A stretch of 63,015 bases of DNA, counting the filler, from Sluysia triapertura (lineage: Eukaryota): the NCBI GenBank assembly GCA_046118255.1. It is 5 parts of 5 records of this genome, joined end to end, with 100 filler letters (N's around TTAATTAATTAA, not from the genome) between each part and the next. Parts side by side here need not be neighbours in the genome. Positions count along the whole stretch, not along the records: positions 1 to 11,565 come from JBJNIA010183357.1; positions 11,666 to 23,123 come from JBJNIA010184535.1; positions 23,224 to 34,064 come from JBJNIA010192816.1; positions 34,165 to 46,809 come from JBJNIA010092343.1; positions 46,910 to 63,015 come from JBJNIA010210587.1. One strand, written 5' to 3'. Positions 6,188 through 60,396 of the stretch are shown in pieces. Under the pieces are notes generated by a model. The model had not been told where the DNA came from. It saw nothing but the letters and a program-made list of their open reading frames with translations, and ran no database searches. The translations under genes and the position numbers were made by a program. Numbering within the stretch: the first letter of the stretch is position 1; each line of letters opens with the position of its first letter.

Positions 6188-8157
6188 TGTGGTTTTTCTA
6201 ACTCTTTACATACGGCAGAATCCGGTTACAGTAAACATCTTGTCGTAAAGAGGGCGCTTCTGTAATAATATAAGCAAATAATGTTATAGAGTTAGGGTCT
6301 TACAATTGCTCAAAAGTATAACTTTAATAATTTATTAAACAACTCAAAAATATTAATTATTTATTCAAAATACAAAAATTTTTTAATAACTAGAGTAATA
6401 GATAGAGAATGTAAAAATAATTATTTTAGGGATTAAAGCTCCGTGAGCGTGAAATTCGAAAGGTTTCTTCAACGAATCGGTTATGGTGATATAAAAAAAT
6501 TCAATTATTGATGTTTTATTGTGCAGTCAGGAAGAAATTGAAGAAAGATAAAATTCATTTGAATTATTCGGAGCTGACTTTATAATTAGCCGTGAGGACA
6601 TGCGAATGTGGTTAATTGAAATTAATTCCAGTCCGTGTATGGCACCGAGTACTCCTGTTACTACACAATTGGTTGAATCTGTAATTGAATGTGTATTTAA
6701 AGTTTTTTTGATCCTGACTGTGATGCTGGAAAATTTGAATTTTTGTATAATTAAGACCCATTTACAAAACCTGTTATCTATCAAATATGAGGCTTATTTA
6801 TCAAAGGACATGCTATTCGAGAAAGCCTAAATTTGTCTCTGATTCTAATGATGCATATCAAATTGAAAACGATTGATGATGTTAATGAAGTTATTAAACG
6901 TTTAGTACGAAGAAAATTGTTAAATAATGATACCATAACAAAATTAGCTTTAAAATATAATTTAAGTTCACATGTTCATGAAATTTAAAAATGTATGTCG
7001 TAAAATGATGTTCGTACTATAATTTATATTATACTTTATTGAAATGACAAACTTAATTATTGAAATTAATTTACTTTTGTTAAGAACTGTTATTAAAAAG
7101 TGAAAATTACCATTACAATTAGAAACTTTATTACAAATTTTAACTTAAAATTATTAAATTCTAACAACAAATGAAAGTAACAACGGAAACTATCTATTTT
7201 AATTACATCAAGACGAAAATTAAATTTCTTTGAACATTAAAATAATGATAAAATAAAATGGTTACCATACTAATAACAATTACAATAAAATAATTGAATA
7301 AAGTAAAATAATAATAATATAATAACAGAAACAAAATAAAAACATAAATTCTTTGTCTTTTCAACATAATCTTTCTTATTTTATTCTCGTTCTTAACATA
7401 ATATTTATTTAATTAACATTAATGTCTTTAAAAGTCCTAGAGACTGAATGTTGAGAGATTGTGAACCTATGATGTTTTACATTAATCTTTCGCGTTTTCA
7501 ATAATACTTTAAGATGTAATTGTGATTCTAATGTTATAAGATAATGAATATATGTTTTAAAAGAGTTTTTAAATGTACATTGATGGTTTTGAATGTAATT
7601 ATGGTTTGGATGTTGAGAGATTGAGACTTTAAAGTGTTTTGAGGTATGAAAAATGGTTTTCGTGGATCTGAAAGAAATAAAATATGAAAAAGGTTTTGAT
7701 AAAGTATTAAAAGAAATGAGTACAATATGTGTATAAGAATGGAGTAATATTTAACTAAAGATGCTAATAAAAAACTCTGTTTTAATTATAATGATGTTTT
7801 AAGTTAATTTTGAATTACGAATTTAATGATTTTTGATGTACTAATTGATTTTATTGCTGACAAATTGTAAACTCAAAATGTATTGCGATGTTTAAAGTTT
7901 TAGTGGTTTTGATGAAAAAAATGGTAAAAAGGTTATGGAATGTGGTTTTATGTGCGATATGTTAAATTAAATTTAAAATTTTTTGAATTAATTTTTAAGT
8001 ATATCTTTGATGATTTTCGATGTTGAGTATGATCTTGATGCTATAAAATTTTATGTTTAAAATGTGTGAAAGTATTAAGAATTATGAAATGTTCTGAGGA
8101 GTGATTTTGTTATGTATTGTTGAAATAAAATTTTAAAGTATTTCGTTGGCCACCACA
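6188..8157 (-). mobile_element. Cargo-carrying LTR-like element E1 (TGTGGT...ACCACA)
   Basis: Right end gttggccaccaca (8145-8157) is identical to 59480-59492. 7390-7680 is colinear with 59110-59400 (ttcttaacata, attctaatgtt, aaatgtacatt.atggttt, tttaaagtgtttt, tggatct.aaa). Left end tgtggtttttct at 6188. No clean TSD. Confidence 0.55.
6440..6840 (+). pseudogene. TTLL3: Tubulin monoglycylase TTLL3/TTLL8-like fragment, decayed
   Basis: Translates SIIDVLLCSQEEIEER*NSFELFGADFIISREDMRMWLIEINSSPCMAPSTPVT, then after a frameshift DPDCDAGKFEFLYN*. This matches the TTL C-terminal FELxGxDF and WLIEINxSP motifs. In-frame TAA at 6549-6551, plus further stops and frameshifts. Confidence 0.85.
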
Positions 8158-9107
8158 ATGTATACTAGTAAAATTGGTGATTTGAGTGTTATGAAAGAGG
8201 TAAATCATTTACAGCTTTAAAATACACTCAAAATATTTTTCACTGAAATCCAAGCATTCGCCTGGATTAAAATCTATTTAAATTCTGATTATTTATTAAA
8301 AGTTTAAGGAGAAAAGCCTTGCTTTTCCATATACACATGTATTATCATATTTTTTTACAATTGTATTTGATCATAAACATTATTTTATATACGCATTTAT
8401 TATAACTTTTACGTTTGTTAATAATTCATTTTTCTTTTATAATATATTTTCCTTTGTTATTGCGTGTTGCTTTTAGTTGTAATTGAGGTAAAAGAAAAGT
8501 TAACGTGAAATTAATAAGAAAACTATTAAGTTCTAATGGTGTTGACAACATATTTGAATCGACCCTCAGACTGAGCTATATATATATATATATATAAACT
8601 TTTAAAAGACATTTAAAACCGTTGCAAATTTGATTATAACGAAGTTATTAAGGATTCTTGGTGAAGGTTTTTTGATATTTGACATCATGCGAATACGTCT
8701 TCCTTGAAATATCAATCGTATATCACAGGCGAACCCGAGATTTAATAATATAATTGTTACTACCAAGTTATTAACAAAAGTCAGTCTGTACCATCTGGAG
8801 AAAGTAATATTCGAAATAAATTACATCATATTGTGAGTATTGCAGATGAAAACTTGCATAGAGCAAGAACCACATCTGATGTTTTTAAACAAACTATGAA
8901 ACCAAAAGTAAACTCCTTACTTCAAATCATTAGTAAATCTTTTAAATCAATTGGTAAAGAAGACCAAGACACATTACTTACTATTTCTAGTTACGAAAAG
9001 GATAAATCACAAGATCTCATTCTTAAACAGCTTCCTTAAAAAATGGCAATGTACAAGCTCAATCAGTTGGATTATGCTTATTTACGAAAATAATAAATAA
9101 AAATACT

Positions 9108-9165
9108 AAGATCCAAAACATACAGAAATTTTATTCATGTACAATGATAACGCAATTTACTACTA
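9108..9165 (+). repeat. Fragment shared with the Tc1-derived MITE at 52764-53163
   Basis: agatccaaaacatacagaaattttattcatgta.aatgataac.caatttactac is near-identical to 52906-52960. Confidence 0.75.
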
Positions 9166-9609
9166 CTATTAGCGTTACTACTATTACTGCTATTATCACT
9201 GATAAAAAATTTACGAAAAAATATTTTTGGAACAATCTTTTTCAACGATGTTAATCAACATAATTATTGAACCAAAATTTCCAAAAACACTCATCAATGG
9301 AACTGCTATCGACAGATCTCATTTATAAATTTATGATGTATATTTTTTATGCTTTTAATCTTTATTTTGTTTTATAATAAAACGTTATTAAATTGTGTTG
9401 CTTTCATGTTTTCTAAATTAAGTTTTGTTTTCAAAGGCATTAAGCATGTTTTGTTTTGTAATTCATTAACGTTTAAAAGTTTAAGCAATTTTGAATATAT
9501 TTTGTACATAAAGTTAATTAAATTTTTAAATAGATTTAAGCATTTTATATGATTTTAATTGATTTTTGGTTAGTTTTAAATAGTTTTAAATAATTTCAAA
9601 GTGTTATTA

Positions 9610-9653
9610 TAACATTTTAAATTACATTAAAGGGTTGTGATGACAACCTAACA
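9610..9653 (-). repeat. Terminus of LTR-like family D (TGTTAGGTTGTCATCAC)
   Basis: gggttgtgatgacaacctaaca is the reverse complement of the family D start at 61202. Confidence 0.6.
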
Positions 9654-11565: not shown

Positions 11566-11665
11566 NNNNNNNNNNNNNNNNNNNNNNNNNNNNNNNNNNN
11601 NNNNNNNNNTTAATTAATTAANNNNNNNNNNNNNNNNNNNNNNNNNNNNNNNNNNNNNNNNNNNN
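11566..11665. other. Artificial contig-join spacer N44-TTAATTAATTAA-N44
   Basis: An identical 100-bp construct occurs four times, and the 12-mer puts stops in all six frames. Confidence 0.95.
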
Positions 11666-11726
11666 GTATATATATAGTATATATATATTGCATCTTAGTA
11701 CATTAATTTATTTTATTACCTTAATA

Positions 11727-14951: not shown

Positions 14952-17191
14952 TGTAGTGAAGTCCATATCAGCTCAACAATAAGAACCAAACACTAACACA
15001 TCAACAAATTTATACATAAACAAGTCAATAAGTAAACTAAAACATCAAACCACTACACAATGCATACAAAACATAAGCACTGTCCTAATAATGTCGTAAT
15101 TATCCATATAATTGTCGTTGCAATATAATTTTTGTATGTTTATCTAATGTATGTGTGCAAGACATAGGTTTTTTTGTATGTCTGAGTGTTAATATAGCAT
15201 AATAATATATATTACTGTTATTTTTATCACTATTATTTTTGTTATTATTTCCATTGACATCATTCATTATAATACTTCGGAAACAGAAAGAACATAAAAT
15301 GAGTACTCAAATTGATTAAAATAAATCATTCACTATATTTCTGAAACAGAAACAACTTTTGCCTTCATTTAGTATTTCATAATCTCCTAATAATGTTATG
15401 TCTTTAAGATATTTATAATATAATTTAATGGTGTAATGATGGAGGTTAATAAAAAATTATTATATCGATTATATTAATCAAAGATAAATATGAAATTACA
15501 TATTACTTTTTACTAGATGTATGTCTAAAATAATGGAAAGTAGCGATACTTCTAATAATTAAATGGTCAATAATCATTTAATTAGATAATAGTACAGCAC
15601 ATTATCTAATAAAAACAATTACAGAAAATAGTAGCATTAATATAACAAGTTCTACTGTTATAATATAATTCCTCTACTGTTAAGTACAATACTGAAAATA
15701 ATGCTGCACATGGTTCAATAGTTATCAACCGATACTACAACAAATGGATCAATAAAAATTCCAACAGTTCGTCTTTATCATCAATATCAAATTCTTCAAT
15801 TTATATTACGAGGAATTTAATAAGTACTATATCGGCAGCAATATCATCTGGTACAAATGCAACAATGACGAATAATCATGCACAATATAAATTCCGCGAA
15901 CACCGTCACCACTGCCAGTAATATTGCTACAACTATTACTATAATACTACCACTATTAATACTGGTAAAACTTCCTTTAACATTCGTACTACTGTTATTG
16001 GTGTTAATACCACTTTTACTACTGCTACCGGTACTACCACTTGCTACTACTACTGCGATTGATACTTCGACCACAATAGCTGTTATTACTCGCACTATTA
16101 CTATTATAATTGAACCGAAATTTACCATCAAAGTGACTATTACGCTTTTAAGAGAAGAATGGAATCCGAATGTGCAATTGCAACATCCATGCAATCTAAA
16201 AATAAAGCAAATGAGTTGGAAATTAAAATTATTAATGAACCATCGATCATTAAAGTTAAAATTATTTTAATGATATTTGAAGTTAAAACTAATATAAAAA
16301 CGTATAATAACCAAAAAAAATTATGAAATTTTTGAATCAAATGTAGAGTGGATTTTGTTGATTATTGGTTTGCACACGTTATACTTTATGGAAACTTTTA
16401 TTGTTAAATTTATTTTTAAAGCGTTCAAGATGTCCTGAAACCAAGTGGCTTTGGTGGCATTTTTATTTCGTTTTATACGTTTTGAACAAAAACGTCTAGT
16501 CATGATTCAAAAATTTTATTGACGATTATTTTGTAATTCTTTCCTGTTTAGTTCTGCTATTCATTGTCCAGGTTTCACTTAAATAATCCATTCAGAAAAT
16601 TCTTTGAAAATAATAAACAATAAATTTTCATGTTTTTGAATTTGTTTATGTTTCTGAAGATATTCTTAAAGAGTGTCATGAAGTGAAAAACAAAGTAAAG
16701 AAAGTGTAAGAATTGAATTTAAAATTTAAACAGGAGTTTGACGTTAGCGTTGGAGCACCACATGTAGAAACTGCCAGTGCACTCGAATTCGATTAACGAA
16801 TTCTAAAGATAGTAAAGGAACAAGCTACCATCTATGCAAGAATAAGAGTCACGCAAATAAAGATCTTCATCGAAACTTTGTTTATGTATTACGATTCATG
16901 TACGCATGTTTTATTTTATCGTCTATTTTTCATTGTGCCAGCGGGATTTGCTGAATTCTCGGAGTTTTGTTTTTATCATAACAATATATTTTTATTTGGC
17001 ATAGTTATTTTCGAATTTCGTACAATAAAATTTAATTTAAATTATAAGCTAATTATCAGAAATGTATAAGGTACCTTAAGTACATATTGATTATACGTCC
17101 TCACAACCAAATATATTTTTTGTGTTTATATTTTATCAGCTAAAATAACTTTTTATTTGCTAAACCGTATCATAAGCATATTGCTGATACA
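14952..17191 (+). mobile_element. Cargo-carrying LTR-like element E5 inside the SLC35D intron
   Basis: Starts tgtagtg with an AC-rich block (accaaacactaacacatc...tatacataaac...aaactaaaacat) matching the reverse complement of 40350-40446. Ends acaaccaaa...cagct...cataagcatattgctgataca, resembling the E2 end acaaccaaaa...cagctc...cataagattgctaca. Confidence 0.45.
15500..16800 (+). pseudogene. Decayed coding cargo: Ser/Thr/Asn-rich region followed by testin/prickle-like Cys-rich remnants
   Basis: Frameshifted fragments HCPGF..NPFRKF (16562-16610) and VGAP//CRNCQCTR (16749-16786) resemble the testin N-terminal GAPC..CxGFxxHxWRKICRNCKC motif. Many stops. Confidence 0.35.
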
Positions 17192-22285: not shown

Positions 22286-22600
22286 TGTACTTTTATTTTT
22301 GTAATACTGTGAATACTTATAAACTAATTATATTAGAACAAAAATTTAACAAATTTAGGAATTAGAACAGAATTTATTTTTGTAATACTGTAAATACTTA
22401 TAAACTAATTATTATATTAGAACAAAATTTTAACAAATTTAGAAATTAGAACAGAATTTATTTTTGTAATACTGTGTAAATTTAATTATTAAACTAATTT
22501 ACTTTAATAAATTATTATTAGAATAGAATTTTAACAAATTATATTAGAACAGAATAATGTACTTTTATTTTTGTAATACTGTGTAAATTTAATTATTATA
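22286..22600. repeat. Degenerate minisatellite with ~80-120-bp units
   Basis: Recurrent ttatttttgtaatactgt, aaactaatt, tattagaaca and tttaacaaattt blocks, about four units. Confidence 0.8.
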
Positions 22601-23123
22601 TTATATATATCTAGTGTATAAAATTTACTGTATAAATTTAATTATAATAATTTTGGAATTTATTTAATTATTTCGTATAATATAAAAACTTTGGAATTCA
22701 ATATAAAAGAAGAAGGAACATTAAACAACAATCGTAGTTATCGAGTACAAGGAACAAAAATTATATTGTGGTTTACCAGCTATAAAAAAGAAATTTTATT
22801 TATTATTCGAACTTTATCAATTGTCTATTCAGATAACAATAACATAATTTCAAAAAAAGAAAAACTGTATAAATTATTCGTGAGTAATTTGATTTTATTG
22901 TTTTTATTCCTAAATTACAAATTATCAATAAAATAAATAAAACTTTGATTTTGTTTTATATTTTTGTTTTGTTTTTTAATTAAATTCGAACTTAAAGTAT
23001 TTAAAGTTAAAATAAGTAATTTTATGCAATTTTTAGACTAAATCTCTTTTGAGTGATACCACACAGGGAAATAAAACTATTAGACATTAACTATTAAGCA
23101 CTTTTATCCTAAACTATTAGGAC

Positions 23124-23223
23124 NNNNNNNNNNNNNNNNNNNNNNNNNNNNNNNNNNNNNNNNNNNNTTAATTAATTAANNNNNNNNNNNNNNNNNNNNN
23201 NNNNNNNNNNNNNNNNNNNNNNN
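23124..23223. other. Artificial contig-join spacer
   Basis: N44-TTAATTAATTAA-N44. Confidence 0.95.
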
Positions 23224-34064: not shown

Positions 34065-34164
34065 NNNNNNNNNNNNNNNNNNNNNNNNNNNNNNNNNNNN
34101 NNNNNNNNTTAATTAATTAANNNNNNNNNNNNNNNNNNNNNNNNNNNNNNNNNNNNNNNNNNNN
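34065..34164. other. Artificial contig-join spacer
   Basis: N44-TTAATTAATTAA-N44. Confidence 0.95.
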
Positions 34165-37514: not shown

Positions 37515-40446
37515 ATATGTTATATAAATTAAACTAATTTGTTTATTATTTATTGTAATATATGAACTATGCGATTGCGAGCTGTGTGTTTGAATATAAT
37601 CAAACTAATGATTAATTTATAAATTATTATATTATTTTTTATTTTCATTCTTTGAATCATTTAAATTATTATTATTGATTAAAGGATTTTTTATTTTTAA
37701 AGTATGTTTTATTTTTTGTAAATATTTTTAAATATTAATTTTAAAAAATATTAATTTAGTTCGAATTTTTAAAATTTTGTTTGAAATCATAAAACTGCTC
37801 AAGGACAACAAAATTTTTTTATATAAATGCCTAGCACAATTTACAATTTAAAAAATTAAACACGATTAAAAATAATCAAAAATTCTCTACGAACAGTGTT
37901 GAAGACCAAACGATACAGAATCATTGAACAGTTTTTATGATTCGTAAACGTTAGTTTATTTATGTAAGTTTGGTATCATTGTGATACTCACGTAAAATAC
38001 AGGAAAAATTAACTATTATTACTGGATCTTTTATTAGATCTATTGTGGTCTTGGTCTTATAATTTAAATGTTTAAGGTTACCGTTGTTATTGGTACTGTT
38101 ACAACGGCTTTTATCTACATAATATTTAAAATTGCAACAAAACCGGTGCTTAAGGCACTCGAAAATCACATTATAAAGAACAACATTTGAATAAGAATAA
38201 CATGAGAAATTTATATTATAGGCACATAAAAAGATTGACAATGATTGTTGACACATTAAAACATTGAATAAGTCTAATAGTATAAAACTTACATTCTCTA
38301 TGAGCCGTAAGGCTGTAAGATGTCACTCCTAAGCTTCCACTCTTTCCGACATTTTGAACAAGAAAAGTTATCTCACCAGGCTCAAGCACGATAAAAACAA
38401 ACATACTTCGGTGACAATCATATATCGAGTGCAAAATAAAAATCGAAAAACAAAAAATTGAACGAAATTTCAAATCACTAGTTTTTAAAATTACGAGCTT
38501 GTTCTTAGTACTGAGCGAACGATATCCATGTCCAAGTTGGTTGTCCATGGATAGGTTGTCTACATAACTAAAATGAATAGGCTTATACATTCGATTAACT
38601 TTAAAATTTAAATAACGTAAACATCTCTTTGGACTAGGGGTATCATTGTCCAGTACTAAATGTTGGATTGTTTTCAACTTAATAAAAAAATCAAAAATAG
38701 CATCAAAATATAATAAATTTAATATAACATAAGAGAAATCAGGTACTTCTCCATTCTGCACGGCTCTATTGACCTCTAATTCCTCATAACTAGAGTTCCA
38801 CACTTGATCTTTAAAATTTGAATTCGAGGTTTTCCTGACCACCACAATATGACTGGTTACACTTAAAATAGATCCCCAAATATGGTTCATATGATCTTCG
38901 ATAAAGACTGCACCTATAATTAACGATTCATACTTATTAAGAATCTTACCGATCTTTAAAATTTGCTTAGCTATTCCATACCTATCATATTCCTTTTCGC
39001 TAATCAAGACTGAACCTATTATTGATAATTTGCCTATGTCAAATAACTTACTGTCTTCTTTCCATTTCGTAATGTTTTGAAATGATTTTTCTTCTACTAA
39101 ATAAACCATTAGTATGCAGCCACTAGCTTCTTTATAATACACTCTTGCCATTGATGTATATAGTTACTGTCCGGCAAAATCACATATTTGCATTTTAAAC
39201 TTTCTATGATCGTGCCAAAAATTTTCTTTCAATGCTTAATAAACTTGAATTATGTCGCGGATATAATGGGTTATAATTAATGTCTTTCCGACTTTCGCAT
39301 CACTAATTATGAACACTTCAAAAAGAAAATCCATTAGTATTCAAAAATATGAGAATATTTAAATTTAAAGCACATATAGTTTTTTAAAATATAAAAGTAA
39401 AAAATTTTACATAATTTTTTAAAATATAAAATTTATAAAATATAAAAGTCATTTAGATAGGTGTAATCTTTAACAATCAGAGCAAGTTTGACAATTTCTT
39501 CAAAATTCATAATTTCTTATATCAGTGATTTATAATATTAAAACAAATTAAAATTCACACATTATATCTCGAAATTTTTAGAACTATCAATTCATCAATT
39601 TATCCAGTAAAATGTACGATTTATTATCAGAAGATTATGAATCACAATTACATTACCGATATTTCTTTACAAGTTGAGATTTCAAATTATATAATGGTAT
39701 CCAATTATATCAAATAAAACCATCCATACTTTCATTAGGACTTCGAAGTGTCAAAATATATTTACAATGACACAGCGTAAGAAACAACTGGAAATATATT
39801 CAGATAAAAGGTGATCTCAAAAAAAGTAAATCACATCGAAAATTCAAAATTCTAATTTTGGAAGAATTTAGACATTTCGTTAAAATAAATTTTCCAAATA
39901 TTAAAATGAATATTCTATACTACTTATACGTATTGAATATGTATAAATTATAATATATAAAAATGAACATATATACCATTACAAAAATTTATATCAAGTC
40001 AAAAATTAAAAAGTAATTAAAATGATTTGAAGTATGATATCACATGTGTTAAGACGTCTAAGAAAATAAATGCTTCCATTTAATAACTGTAAATAAGAAT
40101 CAAGAGGGATAAAATTGTACAAAATATAAAAATAAAAAAATGATCTCCAAGTTCTACCCCTGGAATAATGCTAAGAGTATGTTGCCAGGGTACATGACTA
40201 AAATACTATAATTTCTATGCTTTAACATTTTTTAAATCAGAATTAGAAAGTTTATATTTATGATTAGTATTATTATTTGCCATAATACAAAGTTCTCAAA
40301 GCATTTAAATAGAATATACAGATAGGAAAATATTGTATCATAATGATAGGTGAGACTTCTTATGGTTTAGTTTTTGTCATGAGGTTTGTATAGATGAGTG
40401 TTATGGTTGGTGTGATGTATACGTAGGTGTAAGTTGGGCCACCACG
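37515..40446 (-). mobile_element. Cargo-carrying LTR-like element E4 (left boundary approximate)
   Basis: Right end gttgggccaccac (40433-40445) follows a GT-rich block homologous to the E5 start. Near the left end, gcgagctgtgtgtttgaatat (37577) matches E3 gtgagcttgtatggttgatat (57099). Confidence 0.45.
38216..39334 (-). pseudogene. RAB29: Intronless Rab29 (Rab7L1)/Rab32-family sequence fused to a long unrelated open frame
   Basis: MDFLFEVFIISDAKVGKT...Y*ALKENFW...QICDFAGQ*LYTSMARVYYKEASGCILM...FQNITKWKEDSKL. TAA at 39238-39236 and 39166-39164, switch I (TxGVDF) deleted, then a stop-free 311 codons to 38216. Confidence 0.8.
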
Positions 40447-40784
40447 TCAGGAAGATTTATTGAGTCAAATATTAAGTAAAAAAATAATTCAAGGATTTAT
40501 TAAAGCTGGATTAATTCAAGGAGAAGTGATTGTTGAAGAAGAGAATGAAGTGAAAGAAGCTGATTTAGTTAATCTTGATCTTGTGATTGCCCAATGCTTT
40601 GATTCAGATGTGGATAATGAAAATTTTGATGGATTTAATGAGAAACTTTAATAAATGAAAATTAAGAAGTTCTAATTTTATTATTAGTTGGGGTGAGCCT
40701 TATACGTGGATTTTGAAGAGAAAGAGTGATTTTTGAAGGGGTGCACCTTATACAACGGTGGGCCTTATAGGTAGATAAATACGG
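40447..40784 (+). mobile_element. 3' remnant of a pogo/Tc2-like DNA transposon
   Basis: Acidic tail KIIQGFIKAGL...FDSDVDNENFDGF, subterminal ccttata repeats, end aaatacgg followed by TA. Confidence 0.7.
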
Positions 40785-41199
40785 TATGATTTTAAAATAA
40801 TTGATATTTAATTTTATAATAATAGTATGTATAATCTTACTTTTTGATTAATTCCGTTGAAAGCAATACATCGTTTTAATAAAAATGATAATAAATTGTA
40901 ATAAACTCAATAAAATAAATAATAATAAATAATAAACTGTAATAAATTCGATAATAATAAATAATAAACTGTTTTTTGAATATTAATATAAAGTAAAATC
41001 AATAATTATCAGTCGATTTATAATTAGTAAATAATAAAGTGTAAATACGATGTGCACATGTTTGATTATTTGTGTTAGTCATTCATTACAATTAGTCATT
41101 ACATGTGGAATGCACTATTTATGACATAAAATGAAGTTATAATTGTCAATAAAGTGCAAGTAGCATACGAAATGCTACATATTTACTTAAAAAACAAGA

Positions 41200-43908: not shown

Positions 43909-46423
43909 TGTGGTGCGAACTTCTAACTTAAAATTCAAAATCATTATTTAATTGCGTTATTACATGTATTAACATTTTACATTTCATTTTTCAGAATTTA
44001 TCAAAATCTTTTTAACTTAAAAAATTCAAAACTAATAATCGTATTTATAATACCACATTTAAAACATTTTATTAATTATTTCACAACATTAGAACCACAA
44101 TTTATTTCTTAAATTATCATAAAAAAATTCAAAATTAATCTTTTAACATTCAATTTCACAATCATTTAACATTCAATCAGTAACTCCAACGAAAACATTA
44201 TATTCAGAGTTCAAAACCTTTTTTAAACATTCTTATCACAAAAGAACTTCATAAATTAAATTTTTCCAAATTTATTTATTTATGTTAAGAAAATTTTAAT
44301 TTTTAAAAGAATCAAGATCATGTAAATATAACAAAAAATTTACGTGTTTTAAATAATTTTTTTACTATTATTATCATAATTATTTTAGATTATTTACTTA
44401 TTTTAATATAATAATTATTATTGTAATCATTTTTATTATTATTTATTATTGTCTGGGTGGTAACAAATTTTATGCTATAGTTCTCTCATCAGTAGACAGT
44501 TTAATTAAAGATAACTCAACATACCTATGACAGATTGGTACATTTGGTTGTGCATTGAATTTGGTCTGGTTGGACGTCCAGTTGGTGGCATGTCTTTTGT
44601 AATTATTATCATTTCTTCGTGGACATCCAATCATAAGATAGTAACTAATAAAATTTTTCTATGCACAACAAAAAAAATGATCAATAACTGCCACTCAATC
44701 ATAAAATTGTATAAAAATCAATAATTGGTTTGCAAAAAAATAATTAAATTTTCAAAAATAAAATGTTTCTCAATAACAAAATAGGCAAATCATTCACAAA
44801 TAAAATTTTTATGGCGCTGAAAATAAAAAAAGAACTAATTTTAAATCAATTAACTAAAAATTCTGATTTATTTAAAAGGTTAATTGAGTTGATATGTTCT
44901 ATTAATAATCAACTAAAGTTATCATCATCATTAAGCAATGTCAAATTAGATTATTTTGTAAACCTCGATAATTATAATTCATCTTCAATAATAACAGTAA
45001 ATTCTGTTCAAATGTATATAAAAGTTTGCTACCATAATTTCGACTTAGAATATATCAATCGAAATTATTGACTATGTTATGGAGTCACTTAATAGACACT
45101 CGTAATGAAGCTAAAAAAGATTTTATTCTAAATACAGATCATCTTATTCATATAAGACAGATTGAACTTATTTTCCTTATGATCAATCATAATAGTACCT
45201 TTTATCAGAATGTTTCTTACGAAATTATAAACAAAATTCTAAATGTCATGTCTTTGCTCAGAGAGAAATCTTTAGAACATTATGAAATTAAATTAAAATT
45301 CAGATCGTTATAATCAATGCCGTCCGCGTTGCACTTAAATCCTTCATTGTTATCACATAATATTTCATATGTTAGACAATTATATTGACCATTAAGCATA
45401 CAAAATCAAATAGAATTTATTTACGATTTTTTCGTTAGAAACGGTAATCTCATGAATTCATACTATGAAATGACTTACAACGATATAAGTATTTCATCAT
45501 CTCAATTATCAAGCAATGCAATCAAATTCGAACTTCTCACAGAAGTCGTTGGCCAACGATTTAAATTCAGAAAAGTAAATATTAAGTAAAAAAAAATTCA
45601 AACCTACAACCGCAACTCGATGTTGTCATTAAAGAAAACCAAAATAATAAATCTGATGCAAGTATCAATTCTCGTAATCAAAGAAGACACGTCACTAAAC
45701 CGATGTCTATTAATCCAAATTCGTCTTCGGTTTCACATTACTGTTCAGCACAGTGTCTCTCCCAAACTAATGAACTAGGTGTGTGCTGCAAATGTGGTCG
45801 AAGATGCAGATACTACCACGACATTAAAAAATTAACCATGATAAAATAGCGAAGTCCACTTATACTCAACACATGAACCGCTTAGATATCCTTATTGAAA
45901 CTTTGAAATTCAACCAATCTAGTGAGAATCCTGCAATCGTCAAGAATCAAATAAAATTTGATACATCACTGAATTCTTTTGAGAACAATTTAACATTCAT
46001 AGTAAATTTTAATTTGCATTACATAAATATAACTTATTTTGATATATTTTATTTAAGAAATCTTCGGATCATTGATATGTCCAATGTCCCAACGTTAAAT
46101 GACATTAAATTTAAATATTAAGTCTTTGTTTCTAAAAAGTAAATTAGTGTTTTGTCATCATCTTTATTTTGTAATTTTAATAAATTTTGTGAATTAATCA
46201 AGTTAAATTTAGATTATTTGCTCAGTTGTAATAATAGAAAAATTTAATTTAATATTTGTAAAATTTAATAATAGTTGTAAAATCCTTAACCAAACAAACG
46301 TTCATTCTTTACAACCAAAACTATCATTGGCAGCTCTTATATTCTTGTAAGAATAAAAACACAAATTTTATATTTTCTCCCATCGAAAATTATTCGTTAG
46401 TTTCCTTTCATAAGATTGCTACA
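43909..46423 (+). mobile_element. Cargo-carrying LTR-like element E2 (~2.5 kb)
   Basis: Starts tgtggtgcgaac. The AC-rich block (caacattagaa, tatgttaagaa) is the reverse complement of the E1/E3 terminal module. The leader tcatcagtagacagtt...ttggacgtcca is shared with E3. Ends taagattgctaca. Confidence 0.6.
44763..46121 (+). pseudogene. Fragmented single-exon ORF of unknown family with a Cys cluster (HYCSAQC...VCCKCGRRC)
   Basis: Consecutive same-strand ORF pieces 44763-45071, 45068-45313 and 45873-46121, linked by frameshifts and stops. C-terminal YFDIFYLR resembles YFDVFYFR in E3. Confidence 0.55.
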
Positions 46424-46809: not shown

Positions 46810-46909
46810 NNNNNNNNNNNNNNNNNNNNNNNNNNNNNNNNNNNNNNNNNNNNTTAATTAATTAANNNNNNNNNNNNNNNNNNNNNNNNNNNNNNNNNNN
46901 NNNNNNNNN
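46810..46909. other. Artificial contig-join spacer
   Basis: N44-TTAATTAATTAA-N44. Confidence 0.95.
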
Positions 46910-49689: not shown

Positions 49690-50130
49690 TCTTAGTGAGC
49701 ATCAACTTAATACATGCTTTAAATAAATTTAAATATTACAACATATATAAATTTAACTTTACATTATAAAAATTTATTAAAACGAATAATTTTTACGTTA
49801 TCTGCATCGATGTGCATTGTAACACTTCAGCATTATTAATACTGATATAATTCAAGATTATATCCTAATTCTAATGTTATTTTATGATATTTAAACAATT
49901 TTTAATTAAATTAATTAATTAATATTTTCAAAAGTAAAACTTTTTAAACGTTCTCCCTTCGTATCTTTCTTTTTTTAAATTTTATTTCAAATATTTTATA
50001 CACCTATTCCATTAACAAGCATAGTTCAGTAAATTATTGTGCTTTATTGTGCTTTAAAGTATTTGTTGCTTTCTTATTCTACAAATTATTATTATATTCA
50101 TTTGTGCTTCACCATTGACTAAACCCAACA
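49690..50130 (+). repeat. Dispersed repeat family E
   Basis: ttttacgttatctgcatcgatgtgcattgtaacacttca resembles 55242 ttttacgctatctacgttgacgtgcttcgcaacacttca. Both end in actaa.cccaaca. Confidence 0.6.
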
Positions 50131-50950: not shown

Positions 50951-50974
50951 GTAATGGTATCCGTATAGATGGAA

Positions 50975-51244: not shown

Positions 51245-52011
51245 CTGAAAATTATTGTTTAGTTAATATAATATAGACAAAATTTACAATAAAATATGTA
51301 TACATTATTTAGAAAATAATGGTTTAATACAAAAATTAATGTTAACCCTTTAACTAAGGGTATATATTTAACATGCAAGCCACTTAGAAGCAAAAAAACA
51401 AAAAATAAAAATAAAAATTATTTATTTTGTTTTAGAACAATATTTTAAAAACACATTCTTCTTACATTTAGAACGAAATACATTATTATCCTTCTGTAAG
51501 TAAATGATCTTCTTGCAATTTGGTGTAAAATTTAAAATTTAAATTGGAGTTTTACACAAAATGTTTCATCTTAATCTCCTAGTAGAAATTGTACATAAAA
51601 CGAACTCCTAAAGTGTAATATTTTCTCTAACTTGATTATTTTTGGTGGTACGGAATAGAAATTCGACTTATGTAGATGTGTATATTTCTATAACTCATAT
51701 TTTTGCCTCTAAAATAAAATACAGTGTCTACCTTCTTCCATAAGTTGAACTGCTTCAAATTTGAAATTTTTTTAATAAAATGGAAATAATTCTTTATAAT
51801 TAGACCAAATAGTAATATAAATTATGAGTTTATATGTCCTGTGCGTCTAAATGAAGTCGGATATTCATAACATAGATAATCGCTTATTGACGACAGACGC
51901 AGTTAATGGGGGGACTAACAATGTTTTAGGTGGCGCTTATTTTCTATATTTATAAAAAATTATCTATTTATAATTTCATTATTAACATATTTTATTATAA
52001 AATTCACTAAC

Positions 52012-52510
52012 ATGTAATAATTCTGCTGGTTTTAATAAATAGCTACATAGTTGAATATAAGCTAAACTTATCGAGACAATGAATATAATTTCAACATATG
52101 ACATTATTAAATTTAAATTCAATAAACCCAGTTCAAGTATTACATTAATTTTGGAATAACAATAAATCATTGACAGAAATATTTGAGCAAATATACAAAT
52201 AATTAAACCAATAAAAATAGTCGTTTGAAGTCGATTGACATAGTTTGACAATTTAAAATCCAAATGAAAAGTACTAAATATGGATTCTAGTTTAAAACAG
52301 CGATAATATAAAATAAAAATGGATAAAACTGTTAATAATTGTGAAATAATTATCGAAACCAAATCGAAATAATTACAATGTTCATTAAGAATTAAATAAA
52401 TAATAAATCCAAAACTGCCAAGTAAACACAAAATGATAAAAACAATTAGAATTAATTCTACACGATATTTATATAGACCATTTATTAATTGGATCTTTTC
52501 TTTTATATAT
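52012..52510 (-). CDS. Multi-pass (~4 TM) membrane protein exon, TMEM192-like
   Basis: ttcag acceptor and GTTAGT donor. 499-bp open frame with four hydrophobic segments, ending YVEIIFIVSISLAYIQLCSYLLKPAELLH. Joins 51244 in phase. Confidence 0.7.
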
Positions 52511-52763
52511 CTGAATTGATGTAAAATAAATATATTGTTATATTAATCAATAAATTATTTTTTTATTATATTAACTACTAATAATATGAAAATTATTACT
52601 ATTATTATTACAGGTTTTATTTTAAAACACTTAGAGAGTTGCTTTAATGAAAGTATACTGTGTTACTATTTTTCTATATTTATAAAATTATACCAGTTGT
52701 TTTTAATTTTATTTTTGAAAATAAATTTAATAAAAATTCTAGAATGTACGTATATTGTATTTA

Positions 52764-53163
52764 CAGTGGTGGCCAAATTATTAGACTAAAGACCGTTTTT
52801 GTGATAAAATTCAACACTTTTAAAGGACATTATGTAACGGAAAATGTAAAATGTTAGAAAATAACTACTTTCTCCAAAAAATTCCGTTGAAGATAAAAAT
52901 TTTGAGATCCAAAACATACAGAAATTTTATTCATGTAAAATGATAACACAATTTACTACAAATAAAGGCACATGTCTTTGATCTGGTCATCGTGATGCTA
53001 TACTATTATCAGGGTTTCAGTAAGTTCCGTCATGGTGGTTAGTTTATGGGTAGAAATGCGCCTTTTGACAATCTCCCACAGATTTTCTATGAGATTCATG
53101 TCTGGAGAGAAAACCAAATAAAAACATTTCTCCTGTTTTAGTCTAATAATTTGGCTACCACTG
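52764..53163 (-). mobile_element. 400-bp internally deleted Tc1-like element (MITE)
   Basis: ~27-bp TIR cagtggtggccaaattattagactaaa with one mismatch, TA on both sides. The minus strand encodes SPDMNLIENLWEIVKRRI (Tc1 SPDLNPIENLW motif). Confidence 0.9.
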
Positions 53164-54423
53164 TATAGCTTTAAAAAAACAATGAAAATATAATTGCAAA
53201 ACAAATTCAATTAATAAAAATGATAATAATAATAACGATTTTATCTATACAAAATTACTTATGTAGTAAAGTTGGCTATAATAAATTAATTACTATATAT
53301 TATCAATAATATTAAATGGTCACTTATAAGGCCACAATAAATATACGATATATTTAATCAGTTTAAAGATTGAATTTTGTATAATTTAGCGAAGATTATT
53401 CTTTGTTATTGATGAGCGGAATTACAGTAGCCATTGTAATTTTTTTTGAAAATTAAATTGTAATAAGAACATTATTAAAAGAAAATAAAATTTTCCGTCC
53501 AATATGAATGTATTAACAATAATTATTAATTAATAATCGATTATATAGAATAATAATAATAACTTAAATACTTCAAATTGATTGTGATATACTGATAATA
53601 GTAATAGTGTTATTAGTTTTAATAGGCAGATTTATAATTTATGCTTTATGAAACATCATAGAATGATTCAATACGTCATAAATGTACTTTAAATTAAAAG
53701 TATTTTGTAGTACATTGAACTTTACATAAATAAGGAAATGTTAAGTTGGTTATTAGAAATTTTTGCAAATTTAATCATAATTTTCACAGCTTCTTCATAA
53801 GTTTGTAAGAATTATTTGTTAAAATAATTTTATATCGGATTATAACTCAAAATCAGTTACAAAATTGTTTAAGATTATATTGCATAAGTTTATTAAATTA
53901 TCATATATTAAAACAATTCTTTATATGGCAGATCATAAAATAATAATTTAAAATTTAAAATATATAATGTATAAAATATGATTGATCAGTAAATTCCCTT
54001 TTTTTGTCAGGCATTAGCTAAAATTGTACTATACTACACTTAATATTCAATTTTCAATATATAAGTCATTTTAATTGCTAGTTTCTTCAAAATAAAATTA
54101 AAACTTATAGCATAAAGTACATCTACCTTTATTGTTGAAAAATTAGTAAAACTAACCCCGATTTTTTGACAATAATATTAAATTGTGAATTAGAAATCAC
54201 AGCAGTTTTATTATTATTTGAATATTCCAATTTTCTATCCATAAATCCAAATGTATATATGTATATTTTAAACTATTTTAATTAATCAACCAAATACTTT
54301 GTTACTTTGATACTATTAATTTATGTAAATGCTTTGTAATAACATCAATTACATTACTGATAATAATATGTATAATAATCAAATGATTATGAATATTTAT
54401 TTTACAAAATTATTCACAAATAT

Positions 54424-54698
54424 TATTAACAAAGGGTATTACATATATTACGAATAGTATTATCAAACTGTCATCCATTAGTCATAGGTATTTCAATAAT
54501 ATTGTTCGGATTATTAGTTGAATAATTAGTTAAGTCTCTAGTTAGACTTCGTAAAATGGACTGACCGGGGATCGAACCCGGGACCTTCGATGCGCAGTGC
54601 GAATGCTCTACCACTGAGCTATCAGCTCCGTCTAACAATTTCATTTTTATTATATTCAATTTTATCAAATGGCACTTTTTAGGCCTTTTACCCCAACA
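54424..54698 (-). mobile_element. 275-bp element with an internal tRNA-like module
   Basis: Reverse complement tgttggggtaaaaggcc...aaattgttagacggagctga[tRNA-like]...gaagtctaac...ccctttgttaata. Same layout and length as 49315-49588. Confidence 0.65.
54557..54629 (-). tRNA. tRNA-like sequence (Cys/Ala-like), probably a pseudo-tRNA within a repeat
   Basis: GGAGCTGATAGCTCAGTGGTAGAGCATTCGCACTGCGCATCGAAGGTCCCGGGTTCGATCCCCGGTCAGTCCA. A box, B box, D arm and T arm are intact. The acceptor stem is bulged and the anticodon arm irregular. Confidence 0.6.
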
Positions 54699-55119
54699 TT
54701 ACCACAAATAAAATATAAAATAATAATAAAGCAAAATGAATCCTAACTCTCTACTAACCACGTAAATTTATTCTATTTTAGCGTTATTGCTGAAGAAAAA
54801 GATTCAATGAGTGTTATCCACAACTCAATGAATCCAGCGTACTTATAGCAAGGAGTTGTTTCAATAGTTCTTTACTAATTTGTCAATTGTTACTGATATC
54901 GGTTTTTCTGGATTGTTGCCGTGTTTTTATGTAAAAATTTAGCTCTTTATATAATATCGAAATAATGGGTATTGTGAAAAACAAGCCCATATCTCTTTAA
55001 AATAATCAAATCACAATTTAATACCAAATTGGAATTATACAAACAGATATAAAAATACATCATCCTAATTTACCTATATTTATAATTTAGTATAAACTTC
55101 TTTTAATAACAATATTTTA

Positions 55120-55620
55120 TATCATACGTAACACGTTGACGGTACGTTACACGTCAATCTGATATATACTTTATTAATGCTCAGACATGGGAACATATTT
55201 AATCTTTAATTTTAAATTACAAAATTAATTAAAATAACTAATTTTACGCTATCTACGTTGACGTGCTTCGCAACACTTCATTACTAAAACCAATAATAAA
55301 ACTCAACATTATATACTAAATTTTATATCATTATATCACGAGTAAACATTTTTATTGAGTTATCAAATTAATTAATTAATTTTTAATTAATTTAATTAAC
55401 AAATGCACTTTAATATTTTAACAAATAAAACCTTATAAAAGTTTATTTATTCGTATTTCTCAGTGTCTTATCGTGGTTCAATTATTTCATATGTTCATCT
55501 TATCATTACAATTAATAATGATCCCCTACCTCAATTCCTCAATAACGTTCACATTGTTCTGTTATCCTGAGTCTTGAACCTGTATATCTACCATTGCCCT
55601 TCACTAATCCCAACACACAC
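55120..55620 (+). repeat. Dispersed repeat family E
   Basis: Colinear blocks with 49690-50130 and with the reverse complement of 1810-2330. Confidence 0.6.
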
Positions 55621-57339
55621 ACACACAAATTTATATATAAATTTAGTTTATAAATTTATTTACTCAAGCTTAGCAAAACTTAAAATTTAACCTTAAACAA
55701 ATAAATCAACAAACAACATATAATTAACAATGATTAAATAAGATCGTTTAATGATTAAGATCCATTTAATTTAATTTGTTATTTTAATTTTATTACTTAC
55801 AATTTTAATTATAAGGTTTTTAATAAAAAGAAATTTATTAAAAATTAAGTGATATTTTAATGTTTCTTTAATAAACCAGAAACTTTCATTAATAAATCTA
55901 CTGAGATTGGCTTAGAAACAATTTATCGAGTATGAATATTCTAATAATTCTATTTGTAGAAATTAAAAATTCGTGAAATCAAAATTGTATTGATTTAAAT
56001 AAAACTAGTAAATATCCAATAAGAATGTTTCTATCTTTAAAACTTTCCAGAATTATCTTTTCTATTCTTCTTTTGGGAAAATAAAGCAAAACATCAGATT
56101 TACAGTAGCAACTGAACAATATCAACCAACGTAATAACTGTACAAATGCTTTTTATTGCTATTATTCTATAATCTAATAATTACCTTAATTCCATTCTGT
56201 AAAAATTACTCCATTTTTTTTCATTCCATGTTTTTGTGATTGTATGGTGGAATTTATTTCACAAAGTAATCCAATTTCATATGTTTCGAATTTATTTAAG
56301 TTTGTTCTTTATTTCTATTGTATCAATAATATTTTTTCTTGTATATCTTATTATGTTTCTGCTCAATCCTTACTTTATTTTCATTTCATACTAAGTACAT
56401 TTATCTTATTTAAAATTTATTTTCATCAAAAATTAATAATATTCAATCATAAATATGAAACCAAGTTTGTACATTAAAACCAACCAAAATGGTATAATAA
56501 TATACTACAATAAAACAAAATGCTGCATGAGTATAATATGAGATCAATCAAAACAGTTTTATTATCACTTTTATATCTTTGTTACAGAATAGTATAACTG
56601 TATTTAAATACTGTAAACACGATAATTAATTCATCACATATGGTTAGTTCAAACAACGTAGAAGTTGTTCTTTCTGATCAACAAAGTATAATTAATAATA
56701 TTTCTGGATTATTATTAGATCAAAATACAAGGTTATTTATATGTATATGTTTATTTTATTTAGCGTGATAAATATTTTTCTAGCTTTATTTCATTTAAAT
56801 TAAAAACCAACAAATATATAATAAATTATAATTTATAAATATAAATTATATTATGAGAATAGATTGGATATTAATATATTTTCTTAATAATAATTCTTAG
56901 TAATAATAATAATAATAAATAATACTTTAAAATGTCGATTTTAATGGTAATGCATTAAATTACCACAAGTTTGTTATCCTTATTTTAATTAAACAAAATA
57001 ACGATAACGAATAAATAAAATATTGTTGTTCACATTGTGGTAATATTCTTACTTTTGCTAAACAAAGAAATTTGTATTCAAAATTTTCCATTAAAAGTGT
57101 GAGCTTGTATGGTTGATATTAACATTATAAAAATAATTATTTTGGAAATTGTTAATCTTGTTAATTTTGTAGAATTCGAAGATTACATGAATTGCTATAA
57201 AAATTATCATTGCAAATTTTTTTTAATTGTTTTTGAGTAAGGTTTTTTAATTTTGATAAATTATATGTCACGTTATTAATAAATTTTAATTCAAATACTT
57301 TAGAAAATAAGAAAGTGTACATTTATTTTTAAAGATTAT

Positions 57340-58623
57340 AAAACTAAGACCCGCATCAAATTGTTTTGAAGGCTGCCAGCATTTTGCATACTTGATCCTG
57401 ATATCACAAGTTTGTTTGAACCTAAAATAAAAAACATCAAAGTAGTTAAAATATGGATATAGAAATTGTCGGTTACTTTAGTAGCTCGTTCTGGTTGAAC
57501 TTCGTGGCAATCTTCATTTACTATCTCTATTAGTTTCCATGTAGAATCCGATATTCGAGATGTCTCTTCGGCCACCGAACATCAAGGCAGAATTACCTGC
57601 AAGATGTTTAATTCCATTGGTTCTCTGCAAATTCTCGTCAACTCTCTTAATAACCTGTGTTGATACTTTTGATTTGGTATACTCTGTTTGATTATCAGCT
57701 AAATACTTTTTATCTGACTTAATTTTATATTGGCATGTAGTACACTCCTTTAGATGAAGTTGATGAGTTGTCCAACTGTACTTATTCAACGATATTGTAT
57801 GATTCCCGGGCTCTTTTAGATGTCTTTTTTATAGTAACACGATTAATCGCATTAATGGAACTTAATTGTTGAGGATTAATAACCATAGATCTTATGATAG
57901 AATTATTTGACTGGATAACTAAATTATTCAATTTGACAACATGTGATATATCGATGCTAACAACATTTACTAATTCATCATCGACAGAGTTTCTAATAGG
58001 CTCATGCTCGATTGATTCGAATAATTCTCGAAAATTCACCGACTTGAAATTGCTTCATGCTGTTCATAAAATCATTGCATGATATTTCTTGATGCATTTG
58101 ATAATGTAATTGCACGTTTAACATGATCAGTGCACAAGCCAAAGTGTGACAAGTGTCCAGATTTATATTCAGAACGGTTACAAAATGTACATCGTTCTGA
58201 AAAGTGATGCGCTCTCGTTCTTGTATTTCGCCCAGAAATTGCCATAGTGCTTTATCCAGTCGTAAATTTGTAAAGTCAAAAGCATTTGAGAATTTAATTC
58301 CAACAACTTGACTAAAATCTTCCTTTTAGATAGATGTTTTTCAATATCGATTAATCTGAATCGGTTACACTCGAATACACGTTTTGCTAAACGCTTTGCT
58401 GCTTCGTGATCGATAGATTTTAAGTTTTGATGATCTATTTTGGTTACAGCTGCTTCGTCTTGATTATTAACTAATGATTTCATGATATCATATATTGTTT
58501 TAGTCGCATTAAATTTTGGCGATAATGAAGATTTTTTGCGAATTCATAATGATCTTTATGGTCTTCAGAAACATCTGGTTCGGCATCACTAATATTAGAC
58601 TTGCATTCATAAATTCTGTACAT
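57340..58623 (-). pseudogene. Fragmented single-exon ORF of unknown family, probable distant homologue of the E2 cargo
   Basis: Same-strand ORF pieces 58483-58178, 58039-57782 and 57789-57514 with frameshifts. Motifs MVINP, ECTTC and YFDVFYFR. Confidence 0.55.
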
Positions 58624-58718
58624 TATTGATAATTTTTTTTTCGTAAAAAAGAGAAACATTCAGTTTAATAATTGAGAAATTATTTTTAGTAATCATTTTG
58701 TACAGTTATTAATTTCGA

Positions 58719-58929
58719 TTGGACGTCCAATTCGTAATTAAGTAACAGTGAACATATAATAACATTGATTGGACGTCCAATCAAACACACCAAAAGCCAG
58801 ACAGAAACATTGGAAGAAAGATTGTAAAATGCGTCAATACAAATCACATAGCACTTGGTAACTGTCATCAGTCGACAGTTCGTAAAATATGTTGATATAT
58901 ATTAAATTAAAACTGTCGACTGGTGACAG
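58719..58929. promoter_or_regulatory. Palindrome/hairpin cluster upstream of the E3 cargo ORF
   Basis: ttggacgtccaa at 58719, a perfect 20-bp palindrome ttgattggacgtccaatcaa at 58765-58784, and a 19-bp inverted repeat 58862-58880/58911-58929. A regulatory role is inferred only. Confidence 0.45.
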
Positions 58930-60396
58930 ACTGTAATTTGAACTAGTGATTAAATATAAACAAAAATGCTAATAATTAATGAAGATAAAGTTATTTAGTT
59001 AATTAATAATAATTATAATAAAATAGTGAATAAAATGAAATAATAATAATAATAATGCATAAATTCTTTTAATTTCTTTGGTACATAAACTTTCTTTTCT
59101 TTGTATTCTTTCTTAACATATAAAATCAAATGAAATTTTATTTGTATTAAAATGCTTATGATGGTTTTGAAGTGTGCGTTAAATGTTTTTCCAAGATGTT
59201 AATGGTTAAGTGTGAAAGGATTGGGAACTTGAAATGTTTTGGTAAATTTTAACATTTTCTATTCTAATGTTGTAGAATATTGAGATAAAAATGTTTTAAA
59301 TGAGATTTGAAATGTACATTAATGGTTTGAATGATATTGTTGTAAAGTTGTGAATTTAAAGTGTTTTAAAATTGAAACTTGTTTTGATGGATCTAAAAAA
59401 ATAGGATATATAATATAAAATGTTAGTAATTGAGATCTTAAGTATGAAATGATTATTTTGCTTTTATTGAGTTGAAAAGGTTGGCCACCACAAAAAGAAG
59501 CAAATAGATAAAATTCTTTTGTTTGTGTAGCTGCATAATTTAATTTTAAACAATACTGTGAGCCGTAAACTTTAAACAAACTTTATTGTAAGAATATACA
59601 TAAGATTGTCAGAATATACATTATTTTGATAGTAATAACTTGGCTGTCGAGAGAAATTAATGTTAAATTTTAATTACAATCTAAGGTCGAACCTAAAAAT
59701 AAGTATTCATCGTCTTACATGCCGAATTTCCAATTTCTGAGCAACCATCTAAATAATATATAAACAATTTTAATTTTTTCTACGAAACTGTTAATGTATT
59801 AATAATGTAAAGTAATATAATAATAAAAATAATCATAAAATAAGAAGAAGAATAATAAAAGGATGTTAAAATAAAATAAATATTATCTCATAACAATATG
59901 CACTCATACATTGGTATAAGGAAATGCAAATACAGATAACATAATATGAAAGTAGAAATGTGGAAAATTTGAAAATGTAGTATAGGATGTATTACATGAG
60001 TGAGTGCAATACGATGTGGACCATAATGTATAATCTAACACCACTGAAATTATTATAACCATTCAATATTTATAAGAGAAATAAAAATCAGTATATAATG
60101 AATTAAAATGGTAATACAGAGACAATTTTGTATCACAAGTTTAAGGGAGATCTTACGAAAACTTTAGAATATTAAGTTCGTACATATCGAATAAAATAAA
60201 ACATTTTCCAGAATTTTATGTTAAAAATTTTGTTTATATTTGAAAATTTTAATTAATTTTAAATAAATATGACTCAAAAAAAGTTTGATAATATCGGACA
60301 ATGTTGAAATTTAATAAACATTAAAAACAATGTATGCTATTGAATTTTTATTATTGTACAAAAGTTCATAACAAGATAAATTAATAATGTATTTAG

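Follow-up and report, generated by a model that had tools for sequence, protein, structure and literature searches.

A repeat family of Sluysia triapertura with one shared end module and unlike, partly host-derived coding cargo

Introduction

Animal transposons are known to capture host genes, but few multicopy cases have been described, and those have recognisable carriers. Template-switch capture followed by re-amplification is on record in animals (Tan et al., 2016, PMC5131818), as are long terminal repeats (LTRs) of 1.9-6.5 kb (PMC6431247), and retroviral-type integrases leave target site duplications (TSDs) of 3-6 bp (PMC10045372). Animal Helitrons capture gene fragments in both orientations and amplify retrogenes (PMC4224331), and Helentrons are described with subterminal inverted repeats, T-rich targets and central repeats (PMC4067079). 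We analysed a 63,015-nucleotide stretch of Sluysia triapertura DNA (GenBank assembly GCA_046118255.1), hereafter the window, which joins parts of five records, is 23% G+C and contains ordinary animal genes. A first-pass annotation had proposed that it holds five related gene-carrying elements, E1 to E5.

We find a real, old, multi-copy gene-carrying family with three members in the window, not five. We regard it as very probable that one family module is common to E1, E2 and E3 and that E3 has spread with host-derived cargo. The three units are:

6188..8157, minus strand: E1, whole unit, with a 6-bp terminal inverted repeat and no TSD; 3' end provisional
43909..46423, plus strand: E2, whole unit; 3' end provisional
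57036..59492, minus strand: E3, whole unit, a multi-copy dispersed repeat; 3' end at 57036 or 57098

Results

A terminal module common to E1, E2 and E3

TGTGGTG opens E1, E2 and E3, and TGTAGTG opens E5, at coordinates unchanged from the first-pass annotation; a start of the same TGT(G/A)GTG type had been assigned to E4, which instead begins with CGTGGTGG, that is, with CGT. The bare start 7-mer shows only mild enrichment (11 occurrences, against 5.6 expected). The 13-mer of the E1 and E3 starts, allowing up to two mismatches, is seen three times against 0.12 expected. A T precedes the start in all three units that carry the module we call alpha, a C/A-rich homologous block of 500-850 nt, which is followed in E2 and E3 by further shared features:

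7238..8157, minus strand: E1 alpha block, a tandem pair (copies 8157-7721 and 7721-7238)
43909..44453, plus strand: E2 alpha block and AT-rich tail, from alignment and profile
59051..59492, minus strand: E3 alpha block, C/A-rich, starting TGTGGTGG; deepest coverage, length varying among copies
58862..58929, minus strand: E3 internal hairpin, after the AT-rich tail; decayed in E2
58719..58780, no strand assigned: two 12-bp palindromes of E3, with E2 counterparts at 44570-44581 and 44619-44630

Alignments of these blocks were compared with shuffles that preserve local composition. The E2 and E3 blocks align with a z-score of 7.2, and the second E1 copy aligns with E2 at z 9.3 and with E3 at z 13.8; none of 60 shuffles equalled any of the three scores. 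The two E1 copies align with each other at z 6.1. The proposal that alpha is common to E1, E2 and E3 thus holds up under pairwise alignment (z 7-14). A profile of the four blocks, run over the whole window, found no fifth one, and no fixed tandem period was found within alpha.

Homology between E2 and E3 continues beyond alpha through the AT-rich tail, the hairpin and the two palindromes (z 7.0, 0 of 100 shuffles as good), and the likeness reaches the start of the coding sequence. Four of the six matches to the palindrome in the window, where 0.98 are expected, lie in E2 and E3. The E3 hairpin folds with a z-score of -5.65, more stably than all 200 shuffles; the corresponding E2 sequence does not fold (195 of 200 shuffles are as stable).

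E3 exists as many diverged copies

Contigs of one public run, X1, were aligned to positions 56300-60200 at 80% likeness, a depth test that covers E3 only. X1 was the sole matching run listed, and no RNA run containing this sequence was listed. We placed 1275 contigs: 98 at 99% identity or more, 184 at 95-99%, 416 at 90-95% and 577 below 90%. Depth is 5.7-35 in nine of the 11 flank bins; the other two, at or beside a skipped AAT repeat, have depths of 62 and 143. Within E3, from 57086 to 59050, all 15 bins have depths of 92-747, and alpha rises to 996-6803, about 10-30 times the cargo depth; summed contig depth is not copy number, and X1 is possibly the window's own source. Depth falls within one bin of both E3 ends as first drawn.

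E3, cargo included, therefore exists as many diverged copies. At the 40 variant sites listed, of 499, between 2 and 41 contigs carry another letter. Among the 15 joints listed, of 29, the first 20 nt of the unit are constant, and the length of alpha and of the spacer between hairpin and palindromes varies. One contig joins 57261 to 59123 and so represents a short copy without cargo. A loose end at 58859, seen in 10 contigs, may lie in the hairpin-palindrome spacer, and we do not count it as proof of cargo swapping. Pattern scans gave no hit in metagenome contigs and none in viral contigs; two loci returned by a Sec7 query were dropped as unrelated bacterial DNA.

The three units carry unlike cargo

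Coding-like DNA directly follows alpha at all three loci (5, 0 and 0 of 200 shuffles as good). Its main pieces are:

6495..6961, plus strand: E1 cargo, a TTLL3/8 glycylase fragment, antisense to alpha; strong at 6495-6725, weak to 6961
44748..46118, plus strand: E2 interior, decayed and coding-like, with a weak CCCH zinc finger at 45775-45831
58005..58543, minus strand: E3 cargo, a frameshifted Sec7 (ARF-GEF) coding fragment; Pfam match at 58005-58325

The cargo of E1 and E3 is host-derived. In E1, a TTL domain is matched by Pfam at E 1.8e-12, and the best relative of solved structure is Xenopus TTLL3, so the TTLL3/8-like identity first suggested by eye is now well founded. Over 6495-6725 the fragment is 57-59% identical to five homologues, and no TTLL3 homology was detectable upstream of 6495. 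It has a one-residue insertion in common with two homologues and a monogenean one that is absent from leech and vertebrate ones, and on this ground the host is probably of flatworm type.

The coding-like DNA of E3 measures about 1.3 kb, and Pfam recognises Sec7 in it at E 3.8e-10. Judged by eye, this Sec7 may be of the EFA6/PSD subfamily and may extend further upstream. A 'novel Cys ORF' had been described in both E2 and E3; the E3 version is presumably one frame of the frameshifted Sec7, as we assign the frames by eye, and no protein-level alignment was obtained between the interiors of E2 and E3, so the notion of one ORF (open reading frame) in two units is not confirmed. The Sec7 pieces have no relative in the PDB, the protein collection or the Atlas; an Atlas match to NSUN5 was dropped as weak.

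Open reading frames cover 0.80 of the E2 interior on one strand, which none of 200 shuffles matched. Its CCCH finger, of DUS3L type, scores E 0.022, below the cut-off, and its main frame has no genuine relative among 1.84 billion representatives; the sole match, a repetitive fish protein, was dropped because tblastn did not support it. As DNA, the likeness of the E2 and E3 interiors depends on the scoring scheme, with 1 to 49 of 150 shuffles as good. Among 124 stop-free stretches in or beside the units we found no reverse transcriptase, integrase or transposase domain, as first reported.

Possible signs of RNA-level and DNA-level capture

The TTLL3 fragment runs unbroken across two points at which predicted homologues break off, and we infer that these points are intron sites. 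The Sec7 match, like the Rab match described below, has no insert. The cargo had been said to contain no visible introns. This statement is not confirmed: GT..AG stretches of 55-56 nt, which may be introns, occur in E3 (57476-57422) and in E2 (46002-46057), with a mutual likeness at background level. The E3 stretch is:

57422..57476, minus strand: candidate 55-nt GT..AG intron in E3, proposed from its sequence

Unit ends and target site duplications

The far ends of the units were picked by eye. At 6188 and 8157, E1 is bounded by a perfect 6-bp inverted repeat. E2 ends TGT..ACA with an inverted repeat matching at 4 of 6 positions. E3 can be closed in two ways: at 57036 it has a 6-bp inverted repeat and no TSD, and at 57098 a 4-bp inverted repeat and a 5-bp TSD:

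59493..59497, minus strand: candidate 5-bp TSD, 5' copy; second copy at 57093-57097

An ACA together with this 5-mer occurs by chance in 4% of 600-nt spans, and with CACA in 0% of spans. TSDs had been called unrecognisable; that is right for the ends as first drawn, and this one candidate appears if E3 ends at 57098. A search with shifted ends returned matches at chance level only.

No direct or inverted repeat joins the two ends of any of the five units (inverted z -0.9 to 1.1), which excludes paired LTRs and terminal inverted repeats (TIRs) of Ginger size. The proposed shared 3' module is not confirmed: one of ten pairs of far ends reaches z 3 or more (E4 and E2, z 3.2-4.8 depending on the window used), and one of 150 random pairs reaches z 4.8 as well. 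Likeness among the far ends stops within about 20 nt, and no unit end ranks another unit end among its six best matches in the window. Some look-alikes do appear when 3116 sites are ranked (E1 with the 57036 end of E3, rank 5; E2 with E5, rank 3; the 57098 end of E3 with E4, rank 3-7), pairs that were picked post hoc and that we do not count as proof. A 10-mer is found only at the E1 start and, inverted, at the E3 far end (2 seen against 0.03 expected, again post hoc). Indeed, all three ways of reading the ends, as TG..CA, as a longer inverted repeat or as rolling-circle termini, were found post hoc. None of nine ends folds into a terminal hairpin better than shuffles; the copies are old, and decay is possible.

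We presume that a tRNA primer-binding site could be read into the start motif, which no LTR precedes. Rfam recognised only a tRNA-like sequence in the window and nothing in E3, and so gives no ribozyme support for a Penelope-type element.

Membership of E4 and E5 in the family is not supported

By profile scan of the window, E4 and E5 lack alpha. The beta block that was thought to unite them scores z -1.1, with 57 of 60 shuffles as good, and neither block resembles alpha. With beta no module, alpha missing from E4 and E5, and 3' likeness near background, there is no support for a family of five members that has two kinds of 5' end and combines its 3' modules freely. Two features of E4, and E5 itself, are:

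39044..39334, minus strand: Rab29/32/38-like fragment in E4, best E 9.4e-15
37576..38846, minus strand: possible inner element in E4, with a TGTGGTGG site at 38846; its 37576 end resembles the 57098 end of E3
14952..17191, plus strand: E5, of which only the last 20 nt resemble the E2 end

The Rab29-like cargo proposed for E4 is genuine at that E value; the match spans residues 7-113 and is fused to another stretch. For this second half the one lead is a CFAP61-like Atlas match of 0.77; further searches gave no relative. Inside the long E4 open reading frame, the TGTGGTGG site at 38846 (minus strand) is the best or second-best match to the E1 start among 3116 sites. It lies just past the Rab homology and is possibly the end of a nested element at the chimera junction.

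The start of E4 overlaps a stop-free stretch on the opposite strand, beside three repeated 13-mers. This stretch, 40433-40785 (plus strand), resembles, by eye, the C terminus of a pogo/Tigger transposase and has no Pfam match; its frame seemingly continues into the E4 beta block, and the 13-mer after it occurs three times at 40692-40769 against 0.03 expected. A pogo-like identity for the beta block and its flank was likewise an impression by eye, and we dropped it after Pfam returned nothing. In E5, testin had been named as cargo; no Pfam family is found there in six frames. Its interior at 15847-16326 has long overlapping open reading frames on both strands, one of them Thr-rich, that by eye suggest a mucin with a SEA-like part and not testin; Pfam has no match here.

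Other features of the window

A BTB-BACK gene lies at 60380-62329 (plus strand); it has at least two long exon-like stretches, and its BTB domain contains a low-complexity insert. Copies of a second dispersed repeat family, about 70% alike and unrelated to alpha, occupy 1859-2215, 49740-49927 and 55154-55563; near one of them, at 2251-2262, is a palindrome similar to those of E2 and E3. The tRNA-like sequence, at 54557-54628 (minus strand), has a broken anticodon loop and is a pseudogene or the head of a short interspersed element. Outside the units, a Tc1-type DDE fragment is found at 53001-53210 (minus strand, E 0.001), and 67 nt of its flank, 52893-52959, have a second copy at 9097-9163 (93% alike). 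A very hydrophobic stop-free stretch of 186 codons at 51982-52542 (minus strand) resembles part of a multi-pass membrane receptor and has no Pfam match. Units of 84-107 nt form a tandem array at 22292-22603. The window joins, at 11566-11665, 23124-23223, 34065-34164 and 46810-46909, each consist of 44 N, a spacer with stops in all frames and another 44 N.

Discussion

A non-autonomous dispersed repeat that carries coding cargo, as first conceived, is supported for E1, E2 and E3, which have a shared end module and unlike interiors, with E3 amplified whole; it does not extend to E4 and E5 or to shuffling of 3' modules. What moved these units is less certain. We give a probability of about 0.4 to E1, E2 and E3 being long, cargo-bearing solo LTRs of an unseen LTR retrotransposon. 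We favour the solo LTR because, of the known structures tested, it is the one that combines TG..CA ends and tiny inverted repeats with a 5-bp TSD and a lack of paired repeats. TG..CA ends, inverted repeats of 4-6 bp and one 5-bp TSD fit retroviral-type integrases. Under such a model, a co-packaged host transcript would be copied into an LTR by template switching during reverse transcription, and the lengthened LTR would then be copied to both ends of the element and mobilised by a helper element. Single units of 2-2.5 kb would remain once LTRs had recombined with each other, and separate captures in separate sublineages could place different cargo behind the same first 500-850 nt.

Several observations weigh against solo LTRs. 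No gag-pol, primer-binding site or polypurine tract was seen beside any unit. A TSD was found in one of the three alpha units, at the revised E3 end only and at neither E1 nor E2, and contig depth does not discriminate 57036 from 57098 as that end. The far ends of E2 and E3 are unlike (z 0.1). The 10-bp inverted match between E1 and E3 extends 4 nt outside TGT/ACA, and a CTRR|T motif, noticed post hoc, lies 8-9 nt outside the alpha ends of E1 and E2, not of E3. As to an RNA intermediate, E3 retains the candidate intron and the E1 cargo is antisense to alpha; moreover, stop-free stretches of 150-156 codons occur in a host gene nearby, so that 300-600 nt of intron-free cargo proves little. In the published mechanism, finally, cargo replaces the internal open reading frames between two LTRs and not part of an LTR (PMC5131818).

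Some of these same points would suit a pack-type cut-and-paste DNA element with short TIRs of 6-14 bp, mobilised in trans by a transposase of integrase-like or other type, its cargo captured at the DNA level in gap repair or template switching and then amplified. Single units without paired repeats, the antisense cargo of E1, the candidate intron of E3, the cargo-less copy joining 57261 to 59123, the 10-bp inverted match between the E1 start and the E3 far end and a Pack-MULE-like size of 2-2.5 kb would all be at home there. However, no TIR exceeds 6-10 bp, against 40-270 and 50-180 bp in Ginger1 and Ginger2 (PMC2836005), no transposase is linked to these ends in the window, and multicopy Pack-TIRs are described as rare in animals (PMC8277862). 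A Transib source would require CAC at positions 1-3 (PMC1131882), which we see at two of 12 ends, both of them far ends and without a 5-bp TSD. Overall we consider a short-TIR element unlikely, though worth keeping in view.

More speculative, and in our judgement rather unlikely, is an animal counterpart of Pack-MULEs with retrovirus-type ends: single self-moving TG..CA cassettes of 2-2.5 kb without paired LTRs, TIRs or rolling-circle ends, combining a fixed promoter-like module with a slot for differing host fragments, each amplified to tens of copies. If the units do move as single cassettes, their carrier type is unmatched by the families tested.

A rolling-circle element of Helitron or Helentron type would keep one end and renew the other by read-through into host DNA, producing gene-fragment mosaics without TSDs, with TGT..ACA as short subterminal repeats and not as ends. 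One shared end, unlike far ends and the lack of a TSD in four of the five units agree with this, as do the capture habits of animal Helitrons and the structure of Helentrons outlined in the Introduction. On the opposite strand, CTAG|T in E1 and CTGA|T in E2 lie 8-9 nt past TGT; an A|TC is also present in E2, 7 nt in from the far end. We nevertheless find this origin doubtful: none of nine ends has a terminal hairpin, the inverted repeats are 6-10 bp and not 12-15 bp, and E3, which has a candidate 5-bp TSD, lacks CTRR|T and A|TC within 15 nt of its 57098 and 59492 ends.

It is improbable that only E3 is coherent and that E1 and E2 are an abundant short alpha repeat beside unrelated pseudogene pieces, with no cargo swapping: alpha is indeed far deeper than the E3 interior, contig depth was measured for E3 only, the far ends of E1 and E2 are provisional and the borderline likeness of the E2 and E3 interiors could make E2 an old copy of E3 cargo, but coding-like DNA directly follows alpha at all three loci, E2 tracks E3 through tail, hairpin and palindromes to the coding start, and E1 is closed by a perfect 6-bp inverted repeat.

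Within 54 kb of the window, three loci combine one module with unlike cargo. The module is far more abundant than the measured E3 cargo, and this abundance suggests that the sampling of host genes in this genome has been wide. Should the units be LTRs, the LTR itself is a site of repeated gene capture. Either way, the family is a natural setting in which to measure how often transposons copy and shuffle the exons of their host in the germ line of an invertebrate, probably a flatworm. The copies seen are all decayed, and we claim no function for them.

Comparison with known systems

In a literature search made mostly at the level of titles and abstracts, with few subscription papers and without Repbase, we did not find a description of this architecture, in which each subfamily has a different host gene. 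Transib elements have a CAC heptamer at both ends and a 5-bp GC-rich TSD (PMC1131882); in our units the heptamer is confined to the E1 and E3 far ends, with no TSD there. Ginger1 and Ginger2 resemble our units in their TGTNR ends (TGTGG or TGTAG here) and in a nearby size range of 2.6-7 kb, but E1, E2 and E3 lack their 40-270 bp TIRs, integrase-like transposase and 4-bp CCGG or RTATAY-type target (Bao et al., 2010, PMC2836005).

Bat Helitrons and Helentron/DINE-1 elements share heterogeneous interiors, both capture orientations, a general lack of TSDs and short asymmetric inverted repeats with the units described here (PMC4224331, PMC4067079). They differ in that our units have no terminal hairpin and a 5-bp TSD candidate, and show TC/CTRR|T only at E1 and E2 and only outside TGT. 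Of the Helitron signature of 5' TC and 3' CTRR with an A|T site, E2 has both parts on the opposite strand, E1 has CTAG|T only and E3 has neither. Helentrons have subterminal inverted repeats of 12-15 bp and a TT target; here the inverted repeats measure 6 bp within a unit and 10 bp between E1 and E3, and a T precedes the start of each alpha unit.

Among LTR elements, the giant Gypsy element Burro of planarians also gathers host domains, although its extra domains sit in the internal polyprotein, a comparison made by description only (via PMC6431247). The chimeras of LTR-mediated retroposition (Tan et al., 2016, PMC5131818) are alike in bringing partial host coding fragments into a non-autonomous element, with no poly(A) seen, re-amplification and possible multi-gene chimeras. 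Theirs, in contrast, lie between two LTRs. The cargo here is inside a single TG..CA unit that has neither a paired repeat nor any remnant of gag-pol, and that of E1 is antisense. Cargo of the retroposition kind is also spliced and shows microsimilarity at its junctions; here the TTLL3 fragment runs across two presumed intron sites, and E3 has a candidate intron.

With Pack-MULEs and animal Pack-TIRs (Tan et al., 2021, PMC8277862; PMC6431247), our units have in common a non-autonomous structure of 1-3 kb and varied host cargo behind shared ends, but they have no real TIR (6-10 bp at most) and no TSD of 8-10 bp. Animal Pack-TIRs, moreover, are reported to occur mostly as single copies, their inserts having a median length of 224 bp (PMC8277862), whereas E3 carries about 1.3 kb and is present in many copies.

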